Source: a virus (lineage: Duplodnaviria > Caudoviricetes). From it: DNA of 52,290 bases. This document shows positions 2,457-35,294 of this stretch, in pieces (the stretch's first letter is position 1; every line of letters begins with the position of its first letter). The position numbers and the translations under genes are program-made. The notes beneath the pieces were generated by a model, which ran no database searches, was not told the origin of the DNA, and saw only the letters and a list, made by a program, of their open reading frames with translations. The stretch covers positions 1 to 52,290 of the IMG/VR virus record IMGVR_UViG_3300037628_000403, one strand, 5' to 3'.

Positions 2457-2487
2457 TCCAAAGGTGAATTGAAGCAACATTGCATAC

Positions 2488-2519
2488 AAATAGGCAGCCA
2501 TTTCGGTGGCTGCCTATTT
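2488..2519 (+). terminator. Hairpin, probable intrinsic terminator after SSB
   Basis: AAATAGGCAGCCA-tTTCGg-TGGCTGCCTATTT, 13-bp stem. Confidence 0.7.
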
Positions 2520-2534
2520 CAAGGAGATTTTTCA

Positions 2535-3413
2535 GTGGTACTAATTCCGACAAACACGCAAACTACGCAATTCCAACTCGACGCTTTGATCGAGAACAAC
2601 GAACAACGTCCATACCTTGGAATGTCTGCAATCGGAGACCCCTGTGAGAGAAAGCTATGGTACAACTGGCGCTGGTGCTCGCCGCCTCAGTTGATTACTG
2701 GTAGGGTACAGCGAATTTTTGACACCGGCCATCGCGCTGAAGCATTCATGGTAGCAGATTTGAACAAAATCGGCATTGAAACTTTCATGAACATCGATGG
2801 TATAAGCATACCAATGACGGGTCACAAGGACGAGAGGCAAGAAGAGATAGTTGGGATTGCCGGGCACGCAAAAGGGCACATCGATGGTAGGTGTCTTGGT
2901 GTAATCGAGGCACCCAGGACAGTACATTTACTGGAAATGAAAACTCACAACGAGAAATCGTTCAATGACGTCAAGAAGAAAGGCGTCAAAGCTTCAAAAC
3001 CAGTTCACTACGCTCAGATGCAGCGGTACATGACAGGGTTGGGATTGGATCGCGCTTTGTATATGGCGTATAACAAGAATACCAGCGCATATTACATCGA
3101 GCGAGTCAAGCTTGACGAGTCATTCGCTCAAGATTTGATCCGCAAAGAAGAAATCATCATCATCAGCGAACATCCACCTGAGAAAAAGTTTGATAAGACT
3201 TGGTTCGAATGTAAGTGGTGTAACAATTTCGATATTTGCCACGGTGATTCCCCAGTTCAAAAAAGTTGCCGCACCTGCGAACACTCGGATTTGCAATCTG
3301 AAGGTCGATGGGTCTGTACTATCACCGAGGCAAACGAACCATTACCCACAGAGTTGCAAAGAGTCGGTTGTGGTCTTTGGGCTCTTGGGATTCACGACAC
3401 CGAGGACGCTTGA
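2535..3413 (+). CDS. Cas4-like PD-(D/E)XK exonuclease
   Basis: RPYLGMSAIGDPCERKLWY, GHIDG, LLEMKT, QMQRYM, CKWC...C; GTG start after AAGGAG. Confidence 0.85.
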   Translation: MVLIPTNTQTTQFQLDALIENNEQRPYLGMSAIGDPCERKLWYNWRWCSPPQLITGRVQRIFDTGHRAEAFMVADLNKIGIETFMNIDGISIPMTGHKDERQEEIVGIAGHAKGHIDGRCLGVIEAPRTVHLLEMKTHNEKSFNDVKKKGVKASKPVHYAQMQRYMTGLGLDRALYMAYNKNTSAYYIERVKLDESFAQDLIRKEEIIIISEHPPEKKFDKTWFECKWCNNFDICHGDSPVQKSCRTCEHSDLQSEGRWVCTITEANEPLPTELQRVGCGLWALGIHDTEDA

Positions 3414-5039
3414 TTGGATTTGGATTCTGAAGAAGAAATAGTGATGCGATGGTACCAAGACGGTGCCGTTGACGCTTTGGAAGAAGACGTGCAAGATCCA
3501 AAGTGTCATCCTGTCGCCGTCATTCCAACTGGCGGTGGCAAGACGTTTGTCATCTGCGAATTTGTCAATCGTGTACTTACAAGAAATCCATACGGCAAAG
3601 TGTTAGTTTTATCACACGTCAAGAAAATTTTATCACAAGACTACAATGCGCTTGATAAATATTTTGGTGGATTTGGGATTGGGATGTATAGCGCCAGCTT
3701 TAAGTCAAGGGAAGTCAAACAAATTACAGTTGCCGGCATCCAATCAGTCCATCGCAAGGCAGCACTATTCAAAGATTACGACATCATTATCATTGACGAG
3801 TGCCATTTGGTAACAATTCGTGAAACTGGAATGTATAGGAAATTCCTTTCTCAAATTAAGGCCAACTATGTAGGCTTAACAGCAACCCACTTCAGATTGG
3901 GCCACGGATATATCCACCGGGGTGAAGGCGCGCTATTCAATAAGATTTCCTATGACTTGTCGTCCCCTGAAAACTATGCGCGCCTTGTGAGTGAGGGATT
4001 CCTGTGCCGCTTAGTCTCCAAAGGCACGCTGATGCGGATGGATACAACAAAGACAAAGATCCGCGCTGGAGATTTTGCGGTCAATGCCCTATCAGATCAG
4101 TTTGACCGTGAGGCAATTACAAAAGAGGCAGTCAAAGAGATTGTTCAGTTTGGTGAAAACTATAGAAAATGGCTGACGTTCGCCATCGACATTCCTCATG
4201 CCGAACATATCACACAGGAATTTAAAAATCTCGGTGTGAGTGCGGTCTGCGTCCACTCCAAAATGTCTGGTGACTTCGATGACGCGCTTGATGCTTTCGA
4301 GGCAGGCAAATATCGTGTTGGGGTTTCTGTTGACATGCTAACAACCGGTGTTGACATCCCCGCCATCGATTTGATCGCATTGTTGCGCCCCACGAAATCA
4401 CCTGTAATTCACGTGCAAACGATTGGTCGTGGTGGGCGCCCATACACTTGCGACGAATACACAAAAGATCATACGCTTGTGCTGGATTTTGCCGGCAACA
4501 CCGCAAGGCTTGGCCCGATTGATAACGTCCAGATCAAAGTCAAGGGTGACAAGATCGGACCTGGCGAACCAATTATGAAAGAGTGCCCGAGTTGCCAGGG
4601 GCTTTGGCACCCAACAGTAAAGGTTTGCGATTATTGCGGTCACGTTTTTCAGTTTAAGCAAAAGCTACAAACAAGCGCGGGCCACGAGGACATTACAACG
4701 CCGACAACGCCAACAACTGCGGAGTGGCACGACGTTCATAACATATCGTACAGCGTTCATAACAAAGCTGGCAAGCCGCCGATTCTCAAAGTGACGTATA
4801 AGATCGGTGAGAATGTACTAAGCCAAAGAATCATCCACGAGTGGATTTGCTACGATTATGAGGAAGGGTTTGCAAGGCGTAAGGCAAGGCATTGGGTACG
4901 GTACAGGATGCCTAATGGTAGTATGCTACCGCTTGATACTGCGGAGTTACACGCTCAGTCTAGCCACCTTAAAAAGCCTTGGCGGATCTTGGTAAACTTG
5001 AACGATAAATTTCCACAGATAAAGGATGCTAAGTTTTGA
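3414..5039 (+). CDS. Superfamily 2 DExH helicase (RadD/YejH-like) with zinc finger
   Basis: PTGGGKT, DECH, GLTAT, QTIGRGGR, CPSC...CDYC. Confidence 0.9.
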   Translation: MDLDSEEEIVMRWYQDGAVDALEEDVQDPKCHPVAVIPTGGGKTFVICEFVNRVLTRNPYGKVLVLSHVKKILSQDYNALDKYFGGFGIGMYSASFKSREVKQITVAGIQSVHRKAALFKDYDIIIIDECHLVTIRETGMYRKFLSQIKANYVGLTATHFRLGHGYIHRGEGALFNKISYDLSSPENYARLVSEGFLCRLVSKGTLMRMDTTKTKIRAGDFAVNALSDQFDREAITKEAVKEIVQFGENYRKWLTFAIDIPHAEHITQEFKNLGVSAVCVHSKMSGDFDDALDAFEAGKYRVGVSVDMLTTGVDIPAIDLIALLRPTKSPVIHVQTIGRGGRPYTCDEYTKDHTLVLDFAGNTARLGPIDNVQIKVKGDKIGPGEPIMKECPSCQGLWHPTVKVCDYCGHVFQFKQKLQTSAGHEDITTPTTPTTAEWHDVHNISYSVHNKAGKPPILKVTYKIGENVLSQRIIHEWICYDYEEGFARRKARHWVRYRMPNGSMLPLDTAELHAQSSHLKKPWRILVNLNDKFPQIKDAKF

Positions 5040-5040
5040 G

Positions 5041-5205
5041 ACTAATACGAATTAGTAGTATACAATTAATCAAGTTTTGACATCAGCTAATACGAATTAG
5101 TAGTCGAGTTGTAATCAAGTTTTGAAAACAGCTAATACGAATTAGTAGTTTAGTCCAATTCAAGTTGAAAACTAATACGAATTAGTAGGTGAGGAGGAAT
5201 CAAGT
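5041..5205. repeat. Four tandem ~40-45 bp units with palindromic core (A/G)CTAATACGAATTAGT
   Basis: Cores at 5041, 5086, 5131, 5171, each followed by AG-N~10-TCAAG. Confidence 0.9.
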
Positions 5206-5251
5206 GGGGCTAATTATATACCTACATTCAATGGAGCCGTTTCCGGGCGTT

Positions 5252-5281
5252 TCTAGTGGGCTAAAACGACCTCTAGAATCA
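5252..5281 (+). repeat. 30-bp direct repeat, copy 1, within periodic non-coding DNA
   Basis: TCTAGTGGGCTAAAACGACCTCTAGAATCA is identical at 7122-7151. Confidence 0.9.
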
Positions 5282-5692
5282 GCCCCTACGCGCAAATTCC
5301 GGGTAGGCCCTGGCGCTAGTACCACCAGAAGGGATCGTGCCTTTAGAGCCCCACAGGGGCCTTTAGAGCGTATTCTACGGCAAAAAGCTCCTTCTATTAT
5401 AGGTACTTTTTGGGGTGCTAGGTGGGCGTCCAGGGGCCGTTTCCGGGGCCTAGGCCCTAAAACGCCGTCTAAGGGGTCTAGGATCGCGCCTAAGCTGTGA
5501 TCTCTAAAGATAGGTATAGGGATACGGGAAAATCGTAAACGTCGCTTAGAAGCGATTGCAAGCTGTTAGGAGGGAAAAGCACAAAAACACAAAAGAGCTA
5601 TAGCTTTAGGTCCAGAATTCGATACAGTATAGGCAAGTCAAAGGGGATAGGCCCCAAGGACTTCAAAACGAAAGAAAACTAGGAGTAACAAA

Positions 5693-6292
5693 ATGACCGA
5701 AAGTACGGAAGAAACTTCCAACCCGGTAGTAACGAAAGAGCCAACCGCATTCGAGAAAGCGTCGGTAACAATCGCCGCCGCCCACTCGGAAGGCCAAAAC
5801 GAAAACGAGATAGTAGTCGCCCTTATCCAGGGAGACGGTCTCAATTTCAAAATCGCCGGTAGCTTCATTACTCGGTGGCTCCAGGAAAACGGATTCGCAC
5901 TTTCCGCGAAAGACCGTTACACGCTCGTCGAAGAAATTTTGGTAAACCACGAATTCGCACCGGAAGAATGGAGCGACGTAGTTTCCAAGGCCAATTTCCT
6001 CGTCGAAACAATCGGGGATACCAACCAGAAGCAAGCTCTCAACTCGATTCGCAAATTCGCGAAAGAGCACGAGATCGAACTTCCCAAGAAACAAAAAGGA
6101 TCGGGACTCGGTACCACCGGATTCCGCGCCCAGAGTTTCGACTGGATGGTCGAAAATATCGACGCCACGGAAGCGGAACTTCTCGAATTCCTTACGGTCA
6201 ACGAGAAGTCCGATAACCTCAAGAAACGGATGACGAGTATTTTCGTCCTCGGCAAAAGGATGGTAGAAGCTTCTCGCACCGACGAGGAGTAG
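5693..6292 (+). CDS. Hypothetical protein, putative early gene
   Basis: 199-aa ORF with AAACTAGGAG RBS; no recognisable family. Confidence 0.85.
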   Translation: MTESTEETSNPVVTKEPTAFEKASVTIAAAHSEGQNENEIVVALIQGDGLNFKIAGSFITRWLQENGFALSAKDRYTLVEEILVNHEFAPEEWSDVVSKANFLVETIGDTNQKQALNSIRKFAKEHEIELPKKQKGSGLGTTGFRAQSFDWMVENIDATEAELLEFLTVNEKSDNLKKRMTSIFVLGKRMVEASRTDEE

Positions 6293-6298
6293 CAAAAC

Positions 6299-6367
6299 GG
6301 GCGGGAGGGGCCCAACCCCTCCACGCCCCATCCTTTAAGCTAGCAAAATTTTGGTAGCTTAAAGGAT
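6299..6367 (+). other. Two adjacent intergenic hairpins
   Basis: GGGCGGGAGGGG/CCCCTCCACGCCC followed by ATCCTTTAAGCTA/TAGCTTAAAGGAT. Confidence 0.65.
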
Positions 6368-6419
6368 CGGACGATCCAAAACGCGATACAACGATACAAA
6401 AACTAGGAGCACCAAAATT

Positions 6420-6650
6420 ATGTCCATCGAAAACTCAGCCGCAGAAGTTTCAATCCAGACCCGTACCATCGAGACCATCGTCGAAGATTTCGCCGACATC
6501 GCGCCACTCGGTTACACGCGACGAAATAGCCTTCAAAAGCACATCGACGCCATCACCAAAATCGCCGATCACCAGGAAGATCGCACGCCAGAAAGAGCCG
6601 AAGCAATTCGCCACGCAGCGGCACTTTTACAGGGGCTCGTTAACAACTAG
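6420..6650 (+). CDS. Hypothetical protein, putative early gene
   Basis: 76-aa ORF with AAACTAGGAG RBS. Confidence 0.8.
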   Translation: MSIENSAAEVSIQTRTIETIVEDFADIAPLGYTRRNSLQKHIDAITKIADHQEDRTPERAEAIRHAAALLQGLVNN

Positions 6651-6666
6651 GTCCAAAATAAGAAAC

Positions 6667-6694
6667 GGCCCCCTTCACCGGGGGCCATTTTTTT
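6667..6694 (+). terminator. Rho-independent terminator
   Basis: GGCCCCC-ttcacc-GGGGGCC followed by a T7 tract. Confidence 0.85.
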
Positions 6695-6701
6695 CGCGGC
6701 A

Positions 6702-6756
6702 ACTAATACGAATTAGTAGGCTAATGCAATTCAAGCACCAACTAATACGAATTAGT
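6702..6756. repeat. Two copies of the ACTAATACGAATTAGT palindrome
   Basis: Copies at 6702 and 6741; the second abuts the RBS of the 6775 gene. Confidence 0.9.
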
Positions 6757-6774
6757 AAACTAGGAGATATCAAG

Positions 6775-7026
6775 ATGAAAAACGTAGATACCATTTTGAA
6801 ATTGGAAGACGCGCTTTCCGACGTTTTGGTGCGCTTGAACGCAGCAGACTCGTCGGTTGAGAAATCGGACAAAACGAAAAAGGAATTGACCAAAGAGAAA
6901 AACGAAATTATCAATTTGGAAACGGCGTGGGAAGCTATCAAGATGGCGAGGCAGGCGCTCTACAAAATTGAAAACTACGATAGGGAAGTGGCGTACCGAG
7001 AATCAAAAGCCAAAGCAAAAGAATAG
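6775..7026 (+). CDS. Hypothetical coiled-coil protein
   Basis: AAACTAGGAG RBS, ATG 6775. Confidence 0.75.
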   Translation: MKNVDTILKLEDALSDVLVRLNAADSSVEKSDKTKKELTKEKNEIINLETAWEAIKMARQALYKIENYDREVAYRESKAKAKE

Positions 7027-7036
7027 AAACGAGCGT

Positions 7037-7091
7037 CAACTAACTCGTATTAGTAGGCTAGTAGTTTTCAACTACTAATACGAGTTAGTTG
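7037..7091. repeat. Perfect 20-bp inverted repeat formed by two palindrome variants
   Basis: CAACTAACTCGTATTAGTAG (7037-7056) / CTACTAATACGAGTTAGTTG (7072-7091). Confidence 0.9.
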
Positions 7092-7121
7092 GACCGTTTT
7101 AAGGATCAAGGAGACCAACGC

Positions 7122-7151
7122 TCTAGTGGGCTAAAACGACCTCTAGAATCA
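7122..7151 (+). repeat. 30-bp direct repeat, copy 2
   Basis: Identical to 5252-5281. Confidence 0.9.
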
Positions 7152-7438
7152 ACGTCTAAGCTGACTTATCGTGATTTAGGTACTAGAGTGCCTAGAACTA
7201 TTTGATGGGCTTAGAAGCGACCCTAGGGCCACAGAGAGCGTCCTAGGCTAAAACGCCGATATAGCACGTTACAGGCTGAGATCGCGTCTAAGTGACGAAA
7301 GCGGTTTGGTACGTATAGGTATACTGGGTTGGTCGAGATCTCAGCCCTGAGGTGATTCTAGGTGGCTTAGATGGCGTTTTAGCGCACGGTAGCGGTGGAA
7401 CGCCCCTAGGAGACTCGGTTGGATCCCCTGGGGGACCG

Positions 7439-7467
7439 TTGACAAAAAGTCAGGAATCAGCTAAAGT
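7439..7467 (+). promoter_or_regulatory. Sigma70-type promoter
   Basis: TTGACA-17 bp-TAAAGT upstream of the 7520 gene. Confidence 0.7.
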
Positions 7468-7519
7468 TTTTTCTCGGGCAGCCGATAAGTTACTTGTAAC
7501 TTAAACTAGGAGGGGCAAA

Positions 7520-7711
7520 ATGTTAGCAAAACGAATCACCGATAGAATCGAAAAAGTAAAGGGTTGGCGCTTACAGATAGTCGAAATGAAAAACGCCAAT
7601 TATTTGGAACTCGTCGAAGTTTTGGAAGACGAACTCATCGAATTAGAATCGTCAAAACCCACTTTCATCGACGTAGTTTCTGCGATGGTCGCAGACAACG
7701 CGTCAAACTAG
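7520..7711 (+). CDS. Hypothetical protein
   Basis: AAACTAGGAGG RBS; 63 aa. Confidence 0.75.
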   Translation: MLAKRITDRIEKVKGWRLQIVEMKNANYLELVEVLEDELIELESSKPTFIDVVSAMVADNASN

Positions 7712-7722
7712 GAGATAGAAAA

Positions 7723-7932
7723 ATGAAACGAGCGGAAGTAGAAGAAGCAAAAGCAAAAAATCTCGACACGGTTGTCGATCTGGAAAAGTGGATTGATAAG
7801 ATCGAGACTAGCAAGAATCAAGCCGATACCAACTTATACCGAAAGATCGGAAAGTTGATGGCGGTGATGAACGCTTCGGACGCGCTTTTTGAAAGCGTCC
7901 AAGCCGAAATGGAACTACTCAAAAAAGAGTAG
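7723..7932 (+). CDS. Hypothetical protein
   Basis: The upstream TAG stop is part of the AAACTAGGAG RBS. Confidence 0.75.
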   Translation: MKRAEVEEAKAKNLDTVVDLEKWIDKIETSKNQADTNLYRKIGKLMAVMNASDALFESVQAEMELLKKE

Positions 7933-7940
7933 GGCCAACG

Positions 7941-7981
7941 AAAACCGGGGCGGTTAACACCGTCCCGCGTTTTCACGTTTT
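7941..7981 (+). terminator. Possible intrinsic terminator
   Basis: GGGGCGGT-taac-ACCGTCCC stem followed by T-rich sequence. Confidence 0.5.
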
Positions 7982-7988
7982 GCAAACT

Positions 7989-8080
7989 TGAATACAACTA
8001 AGCTACTAATACGAGTTAGTTGATGTTCAGGATGAATACAACTCTACTACTAATTCGTATTAGTTGATGTTCAGGATGAA
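7989..8080. repeat. Two tandem 44-bp units with the palindromic core, reverse orientation
   Basis: TGAATACAACT...CTACTAAT(ACGAG/TCGTA)TTAGTTGATGTTCAGGA; cores at 8005 and 8049. Confidence 0.9.
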
Positions 8081-8095
8081 ACTAGGAGAACCAAA

Positions 8096-8362
8096 ATGGA
8101 ATTTGAAATTGATGGCTTGAAGAAAAAGATCAAAGATGGTGATTGGCTAACCTTCTGTGGTGTTTTGACGGGTGGCTGCGAATTGAAATGGATAGAAGCG
8201 CCGGTCACAATCGGACGTGACGAGGCAGGGAACCCAGGAATCATTTTTGATTATCCGGTTGGCGGGGAGCAGGTCATTTTTGATGGGGACGATATTTACA
8301 CGACGCACTTTGGAGAGGTGTTTCTGGAGAACGTCAAGATTACAAAACGAAACAAAAACTAG
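8096..8362 (+). CDS. Hypothetical protein
   Basis: AAACTAGGAG RBS; 88 aa. Confidence 0.75.
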   Translation: MEFEIDGLKKKIKDGDWLTFCGVLTGGCELKWIEAPVTIGRDEAGNPGIIFDYPVGGEQVIFDGDDIYTTHFGEVFLENVKITKRNKN

Positions 8363-8372
8363 GAGAATCAAA

Positions 8373-8570
8373 GTGGCAGTATCAATGCACCAGGGCAGGC
8401 TAGATCACTTCAAAGGAAAAGTTGACGAAATGATGGCGGAGTTTGACGACATGCTCCACCAACTATTCGATGACGAGACTGACAGCAATGAAACTCAGGT
8501 CCGTGTAGTTGGGGATCTTTGTGATTCGCTTTTGAAAACAAAAACTGAAATGGATGAGATCAAACTCTAG
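8373..8570 (+). CDS. Hypothetical protein
   Basis: GTG start after AAACTAGGAG. Confidence 0.7.
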   Translation: MAVSMHQGRLDHFKGKVDEMMAEFDDMLHQLFDDETDSNETQVRVVGDLCDSLLKTKTEMDEIKL

Positions 8571-8580
8571 GAGAATCAAC

Positions 8581-8805
8581 ATGACGCCAGAAAGACTATC
8601 AGAAATCAAAGGTCAGATCACCGCAATGGCCGATGAACTCGAAGATTACAAAAGAGAAGTTTTTGAAAATACCGACAGCGTTGAAGGTGACGCTTTGGTT
8701 AGTGCGCTGGAGGATGTTGTTATTACAATCAGTGAAGCAGATAGTGAAATTTCTGGGATCCAGATTTTGGAAACTGATACGGATTTCATTAAGAAGCCGA
8801 GTTGA
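8581..8805 (+). CDS. Hypothetical acidic helical protein
   Basis: CTAGGAG RBS, ATG 8581. Confidence 0.7.
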   Translation: MTPERLSEIKGQITAMADELEDYKREVFENTDSVEGDALVSALEDVVITISEADSEISGIQILETDTDFIKKPS

Positions 8806-8841
8806 ATACAGCTAAGCTACTAATTCGTATTAGCTGATTTT
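8802..8841. repeat. Single copy of the extended palindromic element, reverse orientation
   Basis: TTGAATACAGCTAAGCTACTAATTCGTATTAGCTGATTTT resembles the reverse complement of the 5131 unit. Confidence 0.85.
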
Positions 8842-8885
8842 CGACCCGAACCAGTTGCAGCCTAGCCACTCGAATGTTAGGGGGC

Positions 8886-8916
8886 TAGCGCTGCAACTAG
8901 AAATAGGCTATACTCT
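8886..8916 (+). promoter_or_regulatory. Conserved phage promoter for the nucleotide-metabolism/replication operon
   Basis: TAGCGC-17 bp-TATACT; TAGCGCTGCAACTA...TATACTCT is shared with 49319-49349. Confidence 0.7.
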
Positions 8917-8945
8917 AAGTAGAGTATACCACACAAGGGGGCCAG

Positions 8946-9548
8946 ATGTCCGGGGCAAAGCAATGGATAAATACCATCAAAGAGATCGGTTGCGTCGTAA
9001 GATTCAGTCAAGCTCATCTTTCAAAAACAGAAAACGTGCTAGAGCACCTAGGCTTCACCGCTTTGATTGCTCTGCATATATCAGAACGCTTGCGCGATGA
9101 AGGCCACCAACTCGATCAGGCGATGATAGTCAAGGCCGCGTTGATTCACGATTTGGAAGAGTCTATGGTCGGTGACGTTTCTAGGCCAACGAAATATCAT
9201 AGCCAAGAAATGCGGCAATCATTTGCCGAATTGGAATCTGATATTGCTCTGGTTATTTTCAACAGAGCAGAGTGCCCAGGGTTCTATCACCATTGGGTAA
9301 ATGCAAAGGAAGGGCCTGAAGGCAAGATCATGAAGTTTGTTGACTTGCTCGCTGTGCTAACAAAAGTACACGACGAGTCTGTGCTGCGCGGGAACAAAAG
9401 CCTGATGGTAATTGTCCGCTCAGCATTGTACGATGGCGTCAATGTATCACTTAGTGATCTTTGGAGATTGTTCCCAGAGAGCAGGGTGATTGGAGAATAC
9501 TCGGATCATTGTGAAGAAATGATCAACGAATTGAAGGGGCTGAAATGA
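8946..9548 (+). CDS. HD-domain 5'-deoxynucleotidase/dNTPase (YfbR/DatZ-like fold)
   Basis: RF...ENVLEH, AALIHDLEESMVGDV..PTK, KFVD. Confidence 0.85.
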   Translation: MSGAKQWINTIKEIGCVVRFSQAHLSKTENVLEHLGFTALIALHISERLRDEGHQLDQAMIVKAALIHDLEESMVGDVSRPTKYHSQEMRQSFAELESDIALVIFNRAECPGFYHHWVNAKEGPEGKIMKFVDLLAVLTKVHDESVLRGNKSLMVIVRSALYDGVNVSLSDLWRLFPESRVIGEYSDHCEEMINELKGLK

Positions 9549-10642
9549 AATTGAAGTTGATGAACGTGCCGGATCTACATCAGAATTTACACGCTTGGAA
9601 TAACTCGCGTCCAAACGATACGCAAGTAAGTTTGGAAGAGGTTCTTGCTATAGACTTACCAACCAATGAATTCTGTACTCTGAATTTGTTCGTTGAGTCT
9701 ACTATACTGGAGCGTGAGATATTCGCGACAATGCGAAACCATATCATGTGGGCGCAGTCTTCCAGGATACACGATCCACTAAAGTTCGAGATAGATCCAA
9801 ACGCCCCAGAACATCTTGAGGCTTTCTACAAAGGTGTACGCACCTCGATGGAAACAAGAAGTGTTCACGAGAGGCAGGATGATTACCGTCTTGGACTTCC
9901 TTTGCTATCAATGACGAAGTACTCAGTCTCGATCTCATTGCGGATGCTCGTGAAGCTTGGGAACTACTTCGATCACCTCGCAGTCAACACAGAGTTGAAG
10001 GATATTTTTCAAGTAGCATCTGAAGAGATCTATCAAATGATCAAATACCTAGGGTTGGACATAAGCATCTTTCGCAAATACAAGCCCCACAAAATACTGA
10101 ACGAGCATTACATCAAAGTGGATGGAAGCCGCAGGTTTGGAAGTGCCGTTGTAGTTAGCGGGGCACTCCCATTCCACCTACGCGCTCAGCTTGTTCGCCA
10201 CCGTGGGATTAGCTTTGAGGACAACCTGTTCAATCTCTTACAAAGTCAGAAAGTCTTCACCTCTTCATTGAGGAAAGAACTGCACGTTACCATCATGGGA
10301 TCTACCGACAGCTTCAGAGAAATTCTCAGGCGTCGTACATGTTGGATTGCTAACTATCGTGTTTGGGGTGGGTTCCTCGCAAAGATCGAAGAGCAGATTG
10401 GCGAGGGAATTGACCTGCCCTGCACGGATGGAACTTGTCCCTATCCGACGGATGCAAAGATCAGGTATGAAGGCAAAGAGCCAAATCCACCTTGCCCGAT
10501 CTACTGTGATATGGAAAGGCTCCCAATCACCAGAGAGCAATTCAGAGCAATGGATCAGATGATTGACGCGGATCGGCGTCCAAAAAGATTTTGGGATAAC
10601 AAGATGAATCAACTAACGTTGATTGAAGGGGAAGAGTCATGA
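9545..10642 (+). CDS. thyX: Divergent tandem-domain ThyX-like flavoprotein
   Basis: N-half TMR-x7-SSR and DDYRLGLP; C-half RAQLVRHR and ILRRRTC..A; Cys-rich tail. Confidence 0.65.
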   Translation: MKLKLMNVPDLHQNLHAWNNSRPNDTQVSLEEVLAIDLPTNEFCTLNLFVESTILEREIFATMRNHIMWAQSSRIHDPLKFEIDPNAPEHLEAFYKGVRTSMETRSVHERQDDYRLGLPLLSMTKYSVSISLRMLVKLGNYFDHLAVNTELKDIFQVASEEIYQMIKYLGLDISIFRKYKPHKILNEHYIKVDGSRRFGSAVVVSGALPFHLRAQLVRHRGISFEDNLFNLLQSQKVFTSSLRKELHVTIMGSTDSFREILRRRTCWIANYRVWGGFLAKIEEQIGEGIDLPCTDGTCPYPTDAKIRYEGKEPNPPCPIYCDMERLPITREQFRAMDQMIDADRRPKRFWDNKMNQLTLIEGEES

Positions 10643-11064
10643 TAGTGAAGGTCTATATAGCAGCACCATTCTTCAACGAGCGCCAGCTTGCGATTGTATC
10701 GGAAGTTGAGAACTTTCTCACAAGCAAAGGGATTGACTTTTTCAGTCCACGATGCACCGGTACGCTGAAGGATATGTCGAAGGAAAGGCAACAGCAAACC
10801 AAGCGACAAATTTACGATACCAATATCAGAATGATGGATGCTTGTACCCACATGATTGCTTGCGTGGAAGAAAAAGACCAAGGTACCACGTTTGAGATTG
10901 GGTACTACGCTGCTAAGCAAAAGCCAATCGTGCTATTCTCTGAGAAGGTAGGCACGGTGAATGTAATGCTTGCCGAGGCTGCGATGTCTGTTTGTGATGG
11001 CCTTTACCTTTTGGACTCGGCTCTCATCGGTGACTACACAAGCCCACCCGCGAGTTTGACCTGA
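10639..11064 (+). CDS. Nucleoside 2-deoxyribosyltransferase / dNMP N-glycosidase family protein
   Basis: VYIAAPFF, FFSPR, DQGTTFEIGY (catalytic Glu), NVML. Confidence 0.85.
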   Translation: MIVKVYIAAPFFNERQLAIVSEVENFLTSKGIDFFSPRCTGTLKDMSKERQQQTKRQIYDTNIRMMDACTHMIACVEEKDQGTTFEIGYYAAKQKPIVLFSEKVGTVNVMLAEAAMSVCDGLYLLDSALIGDYTSPPASLT

Positions 11065-11354
11065 TGTCGGTCCAAGGAAATTTACGTGAGGCTGCCGAGC
11101 TATTTGAGAATCGCAACCCAGAGTACGGTGACGGCTGGAAGCGATCTCAAAAGCTCCTTGAAGCATTCTTCCCAAATGGAGTTGTGTTGAAAACTCCAGA
11201 GGACATGGCCCGCTTTGCTAACTTTAATATGCTGATCGTCAAGCTGGTCCGGTATGCGACCATGATGGAAGAGGGCGGCCACCTTGACTCCATTGAAGAC
11301 TTGATGGTGTACGCTGCGATGTTGAAGGAGAGGACGCATGGCTCTGTATCCTAA
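11064..11354 (+). CDS. All-alpha nucleotide-modification-associated protein (DUF6378/Nmad1-like)
   Basis: RNPEYGD...KLVRY...HLDSIEDLMVYAAML. Confidence 0.65.
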   Translation: MSVQGNLREAAELFENRNPEYGDGWKRSQKLLEAFFPNGVVLKTPEDMARFANFNMLIVKLVRYATMMEEGGHLDSIEDLMVYAAMLKERTHGSVS

Positions 11355-12177
11355 TGTTCGTCATACCAACTATACAGTTCCAAATTTCTACATTCTTGGA
11401 GCGGCAAAGTGCGGTACTACATCGCTAGCAAAATGGCTAGGCAGGCATCCAGACATCTGCATATCCAGGCCGAAAGAGCCACGCTACTTCACGATGGAAT
11501 ATCACAACGGTCCAGAATGGTATTCCAAAAACTACTTCCCTCATTATGATGGGGAGTATTACATGGGGGACGCTTCAGCGCTGAACCTAATGGTTCATTT
11601 TGTTACCAAGCGGATCAAGGAAACGTCGGGCAGCAACGCGAAGTTCATCGTGTTAGTACGCAACCCGATTCAAAGGGCATACTCTTTTTGGAGCAAGTAC
11701 TCCAGGATGAGGCCAGGCCGCGAAACTGGAACATTTGATGAAGTGATATTGGAAAACTTCAGGCTGCTTGATGATAATATATTTGAGACTGAAGAAGAGT
11801 TCATGGTTACGGCTGATGCCAAGGGTGGAAGTTATCGCCCAACGTACATCGAGCATGGAATGTACGCGACACATATCAAAAGATTTCAGGCCGAGTTTGG
11901 TTTGGAGTCGGTAGGTGTTTGGACGCTCGATCAGTTGTCTGAAAATCCAAAGCTGACGATGAATGAAGTATACAAATTCCTTGGTGTTAAAAACTGGTGT
12001 TTGGATATGAGCCTTGAAGAAGAGAATTGGTCAAGTGCTAAGCGAACAACGGAGTTGCCTTTGGATACAATGCATACAACAACGTATAACGATCTGCAAA
12101 GATTCTATCAGCCAGGGGTGGAAGAGCTAAGCAATATGTTTGGAATCAACTTCTTAGAGCAGTGGGGATTTAAATGA
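11338..12177 (+). CDS. PAPS-dependent sulfotransferase
   Basis: 5'-PSB loop PNFYILGAAKCGTTSL, HP..KEPRYF, 3'-PB motif LVRNPIQRAYS. Confidence 0.9.
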   Translation: MALYPNVRHTNYTVPNFYILGAAKCGTTSLAKWLGRHPDICISRPKEPRYFTMEYHNGPEWYSKNYFPHYDGEYYMGDASALNLMVHFVTKRIKETSGSNAKFIVLVRNPIQRAYSFWSKYSRMRPGRETGTFDEVILENFRLLDDNIFETEEEFMVTADAKGGSYRPTYIEHGMYATHIKRFQAEFGLESVGVWTLDQLSENPKLTMNEVYKFLGVKNWCLDMSLEEENWSSAKRTTELPLDTMHTTTYNDLQRFYQPGVEELSNMFGINFLEQWGFK

Positions 12178-34511: not shown

Positions 34512-35294
34512 TTATCCTTGGAAGCGCATTTCTCTGTTGAAATATGGGTACTGGGCCATGATGTGTTTGACGACGTCATCTGGTAATTTGCGCTTTGGTC
34601 TAACTTCCACCTTTCCAGTGGCATCGTCGTGCGGGAACTTGTTGTGATACAAGGGATCAATATCAGTCGCAGTTGACTGCACATTATCAAAATCGTAAGT
34701 GAATGTAGCAAGCTTGGCACCAAGCCCAATGTGTTGGAGCGTCTTGTCCGGATGCTTACACAGATTATCATAATCAACAAACAAGACGTTCTCTGCAGCT
34801 CTACGCTTCAAATCTTCAACAGCCAGAATCGACGCTCCGATGATCCCCTTGTTGCTGATCATGGTTGAAGCGCGTTCAGCCATCGTTCCAGGCATTGGTT
34901 GAAGCTCTGCCGTTTCTTCATCCCTGGCCTCAATGCTGGCAAATACATCAGCGGGGTTGCGATACACGCATACAATCAAACTTTCTGGATACAACCTGCG
35001 TAATAGCGCTGCCTGTGTAGACCATCCGCGCCCTTTATCAAAGACGCATCCTTTGTTCTGATTTTTATACCAGCCTTCAATCGTGCCGCGTTCTGCATCG
35101 ATGATCCTGTTGTTATTGCCGTTGATCACTTCGCTTGTTATTTCTGGCTGAGTTGCCATGCCTTGGGCCAGCGCGGACACCATTTCGCAAACCGGGCTGG
35201 TGCTGGATGCGTGAACGTCTGGATGCTGATTGAGTATATTACAGAGGAGCGTGCTGCCCGATCTTGGCATTCCTGTTACAACATTAAGTTTCAT
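34512..35294 (-). CDS. Sulfotransferase-family protein (structural module)
   Basis: GMPRSGSTLLCNILNQHP, DKGRGW, RNPADVFAS, VDYDNL...P. Confidence 0.9.
   Translation of the reverse strand: MKLNVVTGMPRSGSTLLCNILNQHPDVHASSTSPVCEMVSALAQGMATQPEITSEVINGNNNRIIDAERGTIEGWYKNQNKGCVFDKGRGWSTQAALLRRLYPESLIVCVYRNPADVFASIEARDEETAELQPMPGTMAERASTMISNKGIIGASILAVEDLKRRAAENVLFVDYDNLCKHPDKTLQHIGLGAKLATFTYDFDNVQSTATDIDPLYHNKFPHDDATGKVEVRPKRKLPDDVVKHIMAQYPYFNREMRFQG

Follow-up and report, generated by a model that had tools for sequence, protein, structure and literature searches.

The 52,290-bp genome of an uncultured phage of the Caudoviricetes (IMGVR_UViG_3300037628_000403, assembled from a metagenome; all coordinates refer to this whole stretch, the window) contains a block at 5565..6724 in which the dinucleotide TG is almost absent from the plus strand: there are 10 TG in 1,160 nt, and the deficit concerns that strand only. 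The block holds a gene for a protein of 199 residues (5693..6292) and another for an acidic protein of 76 residues (6420..6650), together with their untranslated surroundings. The pattern fits selection acting on an RNA, or on one strand of the DNA. The depletion itself is well established. Among the explanations that we considered, we tentatively rank first a selection on the mRNA against a putative effector that recognises UG in single-stranded RNA.

The original prediction had counted 10 TG between 5581 and 6720, eight of them in Met or Trp codons and two in a TTGG context. Our recount agrees (five Met ATG, three Trp TGG, and two TTTTGGTA, one of which is a Leu TTG codon and the other intergenic), and the depletion is stronger than was stated there. 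The observed/expected ratio (o/e) of TG in this interval is 0.22, compared with 1.15 in the whole genome, and its plus strand has 83 CA. When segments of 1,157 nt are taken across the genome, the block is the minimum with its 10 TG (median 78, 5th percentile 52), and for seven other dinucleotides the lowest segment of the genome never falls below 0.43 of the median. The block also contains four of the genome's five longest runs without TG (304, 182, 174, and 130 nt).

The depletion survives the codon-preserving shuffles that had been proposed as a check. When each gene keeps its own synonymous codons, the 199-aa gene has 8 TG against 18.4±2.2 expected (z -4.8; 0 of 500 shuffles as low) and the 76-aa gene 1 against 3.9±1.1 (z -2.6; a fraction of 0.014 as low). 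Resampling from the codon usage of the phage raises the expectations to 38.9±4.3 and 11.8±2.2, respectively. For both genes pooled, the 9 TG compare with 50.7±4.7 from the phage codon usage (2,000 simulations, minimum 34) and with 40.3±4.3 from that of three neighbouring genes of the same island (minimum 26). Eight of these nine TG are in Met or Trp codons; the motif is thus at its obligatory minimum. Codons that end in T are never followed by G (0 of 38 NNT codons, when about 14.5 are expected and 38% of the codons begin with G), even if such T|G junctions are favoured in the rest of the genome (o/e 1.29). The two genes use neither CTG (0 of 20 Leu) nor GTG (0 of 17 Val), and TTG occurs once among the 20 Leu codons, i.e., once among the 37 codons for Leu and Val. 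They have no Cys codon and no TGA, and the only TG of 6420-6650 is in its start codon. These counts bear out those of the original prediction. The two genes are the only strong TG outliers among the 51 open reading frames (ORFs) tested, and the other 49 are nowhere near. The next lowest are 7520-7711 (z -3.8), 7723-7932 (z -2.2), and 2469-3413 (z -2.2). The first of these, a small plus-strand gene (7520..7711), had been described as a weaker version of the pattern, which is correct: it has 7 TG, four of them TGG, where the genome codon usage predicts 16.1±2.4, and its own codons give a z of only -1.7.

These simulations make chance a very improbable cause, because none of the 2,000 came near the observed count, and we give just as little credit to an error of assembly. 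The record is a metagenome assembly, and no independent contig among those listed spans the left edge of the block at 5565. However, two other sediment runs carry identical sequence for portions of the block (5984-6299 in X2, 6410-6560 in X3), a contig of 10.8 kb spans the right edge, although the sample behind this contig is probably the source itself, and the phage's own motifs are found inside and outside the block. In all, the stretch was found, in part or whole, in four marine-sediment DNA runs; no RNA sequencing run was among the matches listed. Contigs from all four runs lack coverage of 5619-5969, with a wider gap in X1, the probable source run (~5268-6320), but such holes prove nothing. 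The non-coding stretch 7122-7278 differs between sediment runs at 5-7 positions per ~150 nt. An apparent joint of 6416 to 8373 in some contigs was rejected as a deletion variant: a 27-nt ribosome-binding-site repeat had been aligned to its other copy.

The 3' limit of the block and its untranslated parts are compatible with a depletion that follows a message. We predict that 5565-6724 is one transcription unit, with a leader, the 199-aa gene, a hairpin spacer, the 76-aa gene, and a terminator. The leader (5566..5692, plus strand) is rich in A and CA, carries a strong Shine-Dalgarno sequence, ends in the ribosome-binding motif AAACTAGGAG-N-CAAAATG that is shared with other genes, and is free of TG (0 in the 125 nt of 5568-5692, with 4.0 expected from composition). 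The 199-aa gene contributes 8 TG, namely four Met, three Trp, and one Leu TTG. The intergenic spacer (6296..6375, plus strand) forms two strong hairpins, one with a stem at 6298-6314 and the other with arms at 6324-6348 and 6349-6373 that are 88% complementary; the only TG of the spacer, at 6352-6353, is in the second stem, with pairing probabilities of 0.96 and 1.00. After the 76-aa gene, an intrinsic terminator of seven G-C pairs and a run of T, readable on both strands, closes the block (6667..6695), and TG returns about 30 nt past it. The untranslated 3' end has no TG in 74 nt. The leader, spacer, and 3' end together have 1 TG in 326 nt, when the base composition predicts about 12. Since the untranslated parts are nearly free of TG, the depletion cannot be an effect of codons alone. 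Codon usage or codon-pair bias would have been confined to the reading frames and explained by each gene's own codons, and neither was observed.

On the minus strand, an ORF of 222 codons (5663-6331) was considered as a candidate gene and rejected. Its frame runs exactly opposite that of the 199-aa gene, its product has the look of an antisense translation (abundant F, R, L, V, and G), and it stays open because the 199-aa gene uses no TTA, CTA, or TCA codons. A crude calling of the longest ORF selects this antisense frame over the real gene. A transcript of the minus strand was also rejected, as the terminator, being bidirectional, would stop it at 6663-6690.

The purge is specific to one strand, as had been claimed. 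When the proteins are held fixed, TG is depleted in the two genes (z -7.6 and -4.3) and CA is not (z -0.4 and +2.6). The lost TG is made up by CG (+6.9), CC (+4.7), and TC (+4.3). This pattern does not fit the avoidance of restriction of double-stranded DNA (dsDNA), where both strands should be depleted equally, nor decay of CpG by methylation and deamination, which is the reverse of what is found (CG o/e 1.46, TG 0.22), nor codon usage. The first two misfits were already noted by the original prediction. Its refinement of the target to UG[ACU] does not hold: TGA (2 observed, 19.1 expected), TGC (0, 11.1), TGG (6, 13.9), and TGT (1, 6.5) are all depleted, and five of the six TGG are obligatory, forced by Trp or by Met-Val. 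ATG, CTG, GTG, and TTG are also each depleted individually. As all four TGN and all four NTG are affected, the avoided unit is the dinucleotide TG.

A mutational origin is hard to reconcile with these substitutions. Removing T|G junctions synonymously requires T>C, while removing CTG, GTG, and TTG requires a change of G to another base at the third position, so that a single context-specific mutation bias is insufficient. A bias of TG>CG or of TG>TA was also rejected: it cannot remove CTG and GTG synonymously, and TA is not raised (o/e 0.74). Selection against TG itself is the more economical reading. The depletion concerns one strand, covers coding and non-coding sequence, ends at the terminator, and has taken only TG that could be removed, a combination that speaks for selection acting on the RNA or on the DNA strand of like sense.

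The second of these targets would imply a single-strand reader of DNA, for which TG in the non-template strand, or else CA in the template, is the signal. The process could be the selection of primer sites near an origin, nicking by a nickase, or the action of a toxin on bases of single-stranded DNA (ssDNA) that heavy transcription exposes. The sequence by itself cannot tell the RNA from the DNA strand of the same sense, and a strand-specific purge is what such a reader would leave. The surroundings offer some grounds for it, as the block begins about 380 nt downstream of four 45-bp palindrome repeats, beside a helicase gene, that could be an origin, and the phage has its own primase. The motifs known for such proteins are CTG for DnaG, GTC for T7, and of the TNTC type for DarT, and we know of no primase, nickase, or ssDNA toxin that reads bare TG. 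All four NTG contexts are avoided, not CTG alone, no replication feature marks the block, and its 3' limit matches a terminator, which is a landmark of transcription. We thus regard a DNA-level reader as rather improbable.

An effect at the level of translation is less probable still. It would consist in the removal of spurious NUG starts and off-frame UGA, or in an extreme optimisation of codon pairs in a very highly expressed message. The possible start codons ATG, GTG, and TTG each include a TG and have fallen to, or close to, the obligatory minimum, the two genes strongly prefer C-ending two-fold codons (TTC 12:0, CAC 6:0), and the A- and CA-rich leader with its strong Shine-Dalgarno sequence would suit such a message. 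Yet internal starts need a Shine-Dalgarno sequence, which makes a wholesale removal unnecessary, and CTG was removed as thoroughly as the real start codons. The codon-context effects known to us are modest and never reach 0 of 38. The lack of TG in the untranslated 3' end argues against this explanation too, and the gene of the major capsid protein, surely highly expressed, is rich in TG (o/e 1.41).

Selection on the mRNA against a UG-reading effector remains the explanation that we place first, tentatively and with less than even confidence. Under it, the RNA of 5565-6724 would have been purged of every UG that could be removed without changing the proteins. The benefit would be a hit rate several-fold lower, as the two genes would offer 9 sites where about 50 are expected. 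The reader, a factor of the host or of the phage, could be a MazF-like endoribonuclease cutting U↓GN or a toxin that modifies RNA, and the two proteins would still be made while the TG-rich messages of phage and host are disabled. That RNA rather than a DNA strand is the target, and that the reader is a nuclease or a modifier, we infer from the pattern described above. The two proteins would then be needed while the reader is active, possibly as its antagonists. In the most specific version, the block would be a natural 'stealth' message, from which a helical nucleic-acid-binding protein and an acidic 76-aa orphan antagonise a two-base, UG-reading effector that silences every other message; we put this forward as a speculative possibility, and an unlikely one in all its details.

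Known systems provide partial precedents. Messages without ACA resist the MazF of E. coli, which is the principle of single-protein production. As in the block, a short motif is lacking from the sense strand only, by synonymous choice, and the message would be spared by an interferase specific for single-stranded RNA (ssRNA). In contrast, those messages are engineered and their trinucleotide can be removed completely, whereas the block is natural, concerns a dinucleotide, and includes untranslated parts; the UG of Met, Trp, and start codons keeps its purge from being complete. Phage genomes are also shaped by the avoidance of restriction sites, including the single-strand orientation bias of Type III sites in T7. 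In both cases the sequence of a phage would be moulded by the short target of a host enzyme, but restriction avoidance concerns dsDNA motifs of 4-6 bp over the whole genome, and here 2 nt are avoided on one strand of one 1.16-kb unit with CA untouched. Two- and three-base cutters of ssRNA centred on UG do exist: Tth-MazF1 is described as cleaving U↓GN 'like a two-base cutter' (PMC13107127) and the MazF of N. europaea reads UGG (PMC6186784). In a screen of 186 MazF homologues, all those characterised in one part of the study had UG in their motif (PMC13107127). A U↓GN cutter such as Tth-MazF1 would demand the loss of all four UGN, as in the block. However, Tth-MazF1 is archaeal and thermophilic, the phage has bacterial features, and no MazF has been linked to its host. 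The reader need not be a nuclease: CmdT, an anti-phage defence, ADP-ribosylates GA in ssRNA and is thus a dinucleotide-specific effector acting on mRNA, although its dinucleotide is different and the passages covered report no GA-purged phage message (PMC11618068). By analogy, the block would work like a motif-less, MazF-resistant message and is a candidate for that class.

Several observations weigh against selection by a UG reader. Any protection could only be partial, a lower hit rate and not immunity, because ten UG remain and every AUG, GUG, or UUG start contains one, and the other genes of the phage, rich in TG, would be fully exposed. The remaining UG are no more base-paired than other sites (predicted 0.70, vs 0.74 for CG and 0.69 for UC). 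The amino-acid sequence was barely pushed: over the aligned region, Met, Trp, and Cys make up 3.5% of the residues, vs 4.6±1.3% in 59 homologues, 10 of which have values equally low. We found no convincing sigma-70-type promoter at the 5' edge (5565). No UG-reading enzyme is known for the phage or its host. The scans for RNase or toxin domains returned none in 49+45 phage ORFs (PHROGs, Pfam) or in 24 (PADLOC), although many ORFs have no family; they lend no support to the suggestion that the phage encodes a host-shutoff nuclease that spares its own message. A further point comes from the relatives of the 199-aa gene: all ten with available DNA have ordinary TG contents, an outcome that the original prediction had itself named as a refutation of its reading. 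Its proposal of an mRNA built to escape a UG-directed enzyme therefore stands only in part: the avoidance is strand-specific, robust to shuffling, extends to untranslated parts, and stops about 30 nt past the terminator, but the homologues are normal and the starts keep their UG. Its label of 'early operon' is supported by nothing in our analysis.

The relatives with available DNA are ten homologous genes, from seven IMG/VR loci (L007-L013) and three metagenome contigs, with 33-42% identity. In all ten, TG is at ordinary levels (o/e 0.99-1.70), NNT|G junctions are used (from 12 of 31 to 72 of 114), and the z-scores relative to their own codons range from -0.8 to +5.4. Four of them (L008, L010, L011, L012) are located between a helicase and an HD dNTPase, in the same replication module, and are therefore positional counterparts. 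By this comparison, the purge is a derived trait specific to this lineage. It would be a property of the predicted transcription unit, because it extends to the orphan gene, which is unrelated, and to the untranslated sequence. A scan of the ORFs of the seven IMG/VR loci for missing dinucleotides revealed only modest cases, among them 5 TG vs 15.5 expected in L007 (3592-3837) and 2 CA vs 8.4 in L008 (4565-4756); we give them no weight, as the crude ORF caller took the reverse frame of the 199-aa gene as well.

A lineage-specific trait could also be a relic of transfer, if the segment, or an island of 5.2-8.0 kb, came recently from a TG-purged phage and kept its composition without any present function. 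The codon usage of the island (5190-8000) differs from that of its flanks, with third positions in the two genes having 0.40 C and 0.14 T, vs 0.24 and 0.29 in the genome, and the island is rich in CG and low in both TG and CA throughout. The 76-aa gene has no relatives, and among the relatives of the phage it is this region of the replication module that varies. On the other hand, the purge goes far beyond the neighbouring island genes, as the pooled simulations above indicate, so the island is not uniform in composition. The ribosome-binding motif and the operator-like palindrome of this phage are common to the block and to genes outside it. We found no donor: the nearest protein is 40% identical and there was no nucleotide match in 50,697 phage records searched with 5050-8050. 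A relic would, in addition, merely shift the question of the TG purge to the donor. We consider this explanation unlikely, if less so than a DNA-level reader. The rest of the probability goes to causes beyond the explanations discussed here.

We found no description of a natural, transcript-sized, strand-specific dinucleotide purge in a phage in a full-text literature search, which was narrow and misses subscription journals. What was already known is the avoidance of motifs that are dsDNA restriction sites, and MazF-resistant messages as an engineering trick. If selection by a UG reader is the correct explanation, marine-sediment bacteria would have a UG-directed RNA effector that has so far gone unrecognised, the two proteins of the block would be candidates for counter-defence, and dinucleotide deserts on one strand would provide a sequence-only route to such effectors and to the genes that counter them. 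The signature, one dinucleotide absent from one strand of one operon, can be computed when screening phage genomes. If the explanation is wrong, the block is still an unusually clean test case for the dinucleotide content of a single operon.

The two proteins are very different in their distribution. The 199-aa protein belongs to an uncharacterised phage family, with 187 representative clusters at E≤1e-3 and 111 at E≤1e-10, many of whose members have ~65 additional N-terminal residues. Single-protein pattern scans of IMG/VR gave no relatives for this protein, nor for the helicase. Its AlphaFold model is confident (pLDDT 93.2) and has nine helices in three small bundles. Foldseek, as had been suggested, returned no match in the PDB at E≤0.001, and the fold searches gave no resemblance to a nuclease. 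The best hit of VIA-align wide has a Z of 6.6, to single three-helix or winged-helix-like modules, in a range rated uninformative for helical proteins. Among 60 family members, Pfam gave only weak and scattered matches (DNA_Packaging_2 in 5 of 60, best E 0.0019, and single HeH, SAP, and Lsr2). That the protein binds DNA or RNA is our guess. The 76-aa protein matched only itself among 5.8 billion proteins, and a second search gave nothing above the chance range. Neither of the two, nor the 83-aa and 63-aa proteins, had any match in Pfam, PHROGs, NCBIfam, or PADLOC; the 69-aa protein had only a weak match in PADLOC (SP_VI, E 0.00035).

The record is a complete virus with direct terminal repeats, and its PHROGs and Pfam content is that of a tailed phage. 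The plus strand of the first 18 kb is an arm of replication and nucleotide metabolism, with a Sak4-like annealing protein, an SSB, a Cas4-domain exonuclease, the helicase, the HD dNTPase, a nucleoside deoxyribosyltransferase, a DNA polymerase, and a ligase (PHROGs/Pfam); the same scan identified the primase. The structural genes are on the minus strand. There is no RNA polymerase among the phage ORFs in the family scan and no tRNA in the tRNA scan. The portal protein is at most 32% identical to that of any cultured phage. Relatives of TerL with 37-47% identity are found in proteobacterial genomes (seven loci), which is a weak hint about the host, and the phage has an endolysin of bacterial type along with Shine-Dalgarno sites and intrinsic terminators. 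The product of 437-838 contains a Lon-protease-inhibitor domain of the PinA type (Pfam E 1.4e-9). PinA inhibits Lon, and Lon turns over antitoxins; circumstantially, the PinA-like protein could blunt the Lon-dependent activation of toxin-antitoxin defences. Further downstream, 8946-12177 encodes a nucleotide-metabolism cluster with the HD dNTPase (a PHROG match of the dATP-triphosphohydrolase type), a 365-aa protein without family, and the nucleoside 2-deoxyribosyltransferase. Two sulfotransferase-domain proteins are also encoded (coordinates grouped with the cluster: 8946-12177 and 34512-35294). The HD and transferase pair is kept in the relatives L010 and L011. The cluster and the sulfotransferases could mean modified DNA or glycans.

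The TG-poor block sits inside a region of 3.8 kb (5041-8834) with 11 copies of a 16-bp palindrome, ACTAATACGAATTAGT (20 bp with flanks), when 0.33 are expected by chance. Four copies lie in tandem units of 45 bp at 5042-5216, immediately behind the helicase gene, and pairs at 7037-7091 and 8003-8066 are able to form long hairpins. The palindromes look like operators or iterons for a dimeric DNA-binding protein; we rejected the idea that they are sigma-70 promoters. The exact 17-mer of the palindrome occurs at one locus in IMG/VR (L006), probably by chance. The genes of the region share a start cassette of ~25 nt, AAACTAGGAG-N3-4-CAAAATG, found at 5671-5695, 6395-6419, 7498-7522, 8074-8098, 8351-8375, and 8561-8579, and the TAG stop of the upstream gene is often within its Shine-Dalgarno sequence.

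The same module has long non-coding stretches rich in CTAG, CTAA, and TCTA, at 5190-5567 and 7090-7519 in the phage and at 3270-4420 of L008 and 150-800 and 5580-6035 of L010. Of the 113 CTAG of the genome, 30 fall in 5000-8900. These stretches are low in both TG and CA (o/e 0.3-0.7) and have an excess of TA (1.3-1.7), a signature that recurs in the syntenic relatives. Rfam gave no match for them, and no family at E≤1 over 4900-9000. A direct repeat of 40 nt (90% identity) and an inverted repeat of 51 nt are common to the two copies of the phage, and in L008 the CTAG-rich non-coding region includes about five tandem copies of a 22-nt unit similar to GTAGATAGCGTTAGAAACGCGT (3806-3900).

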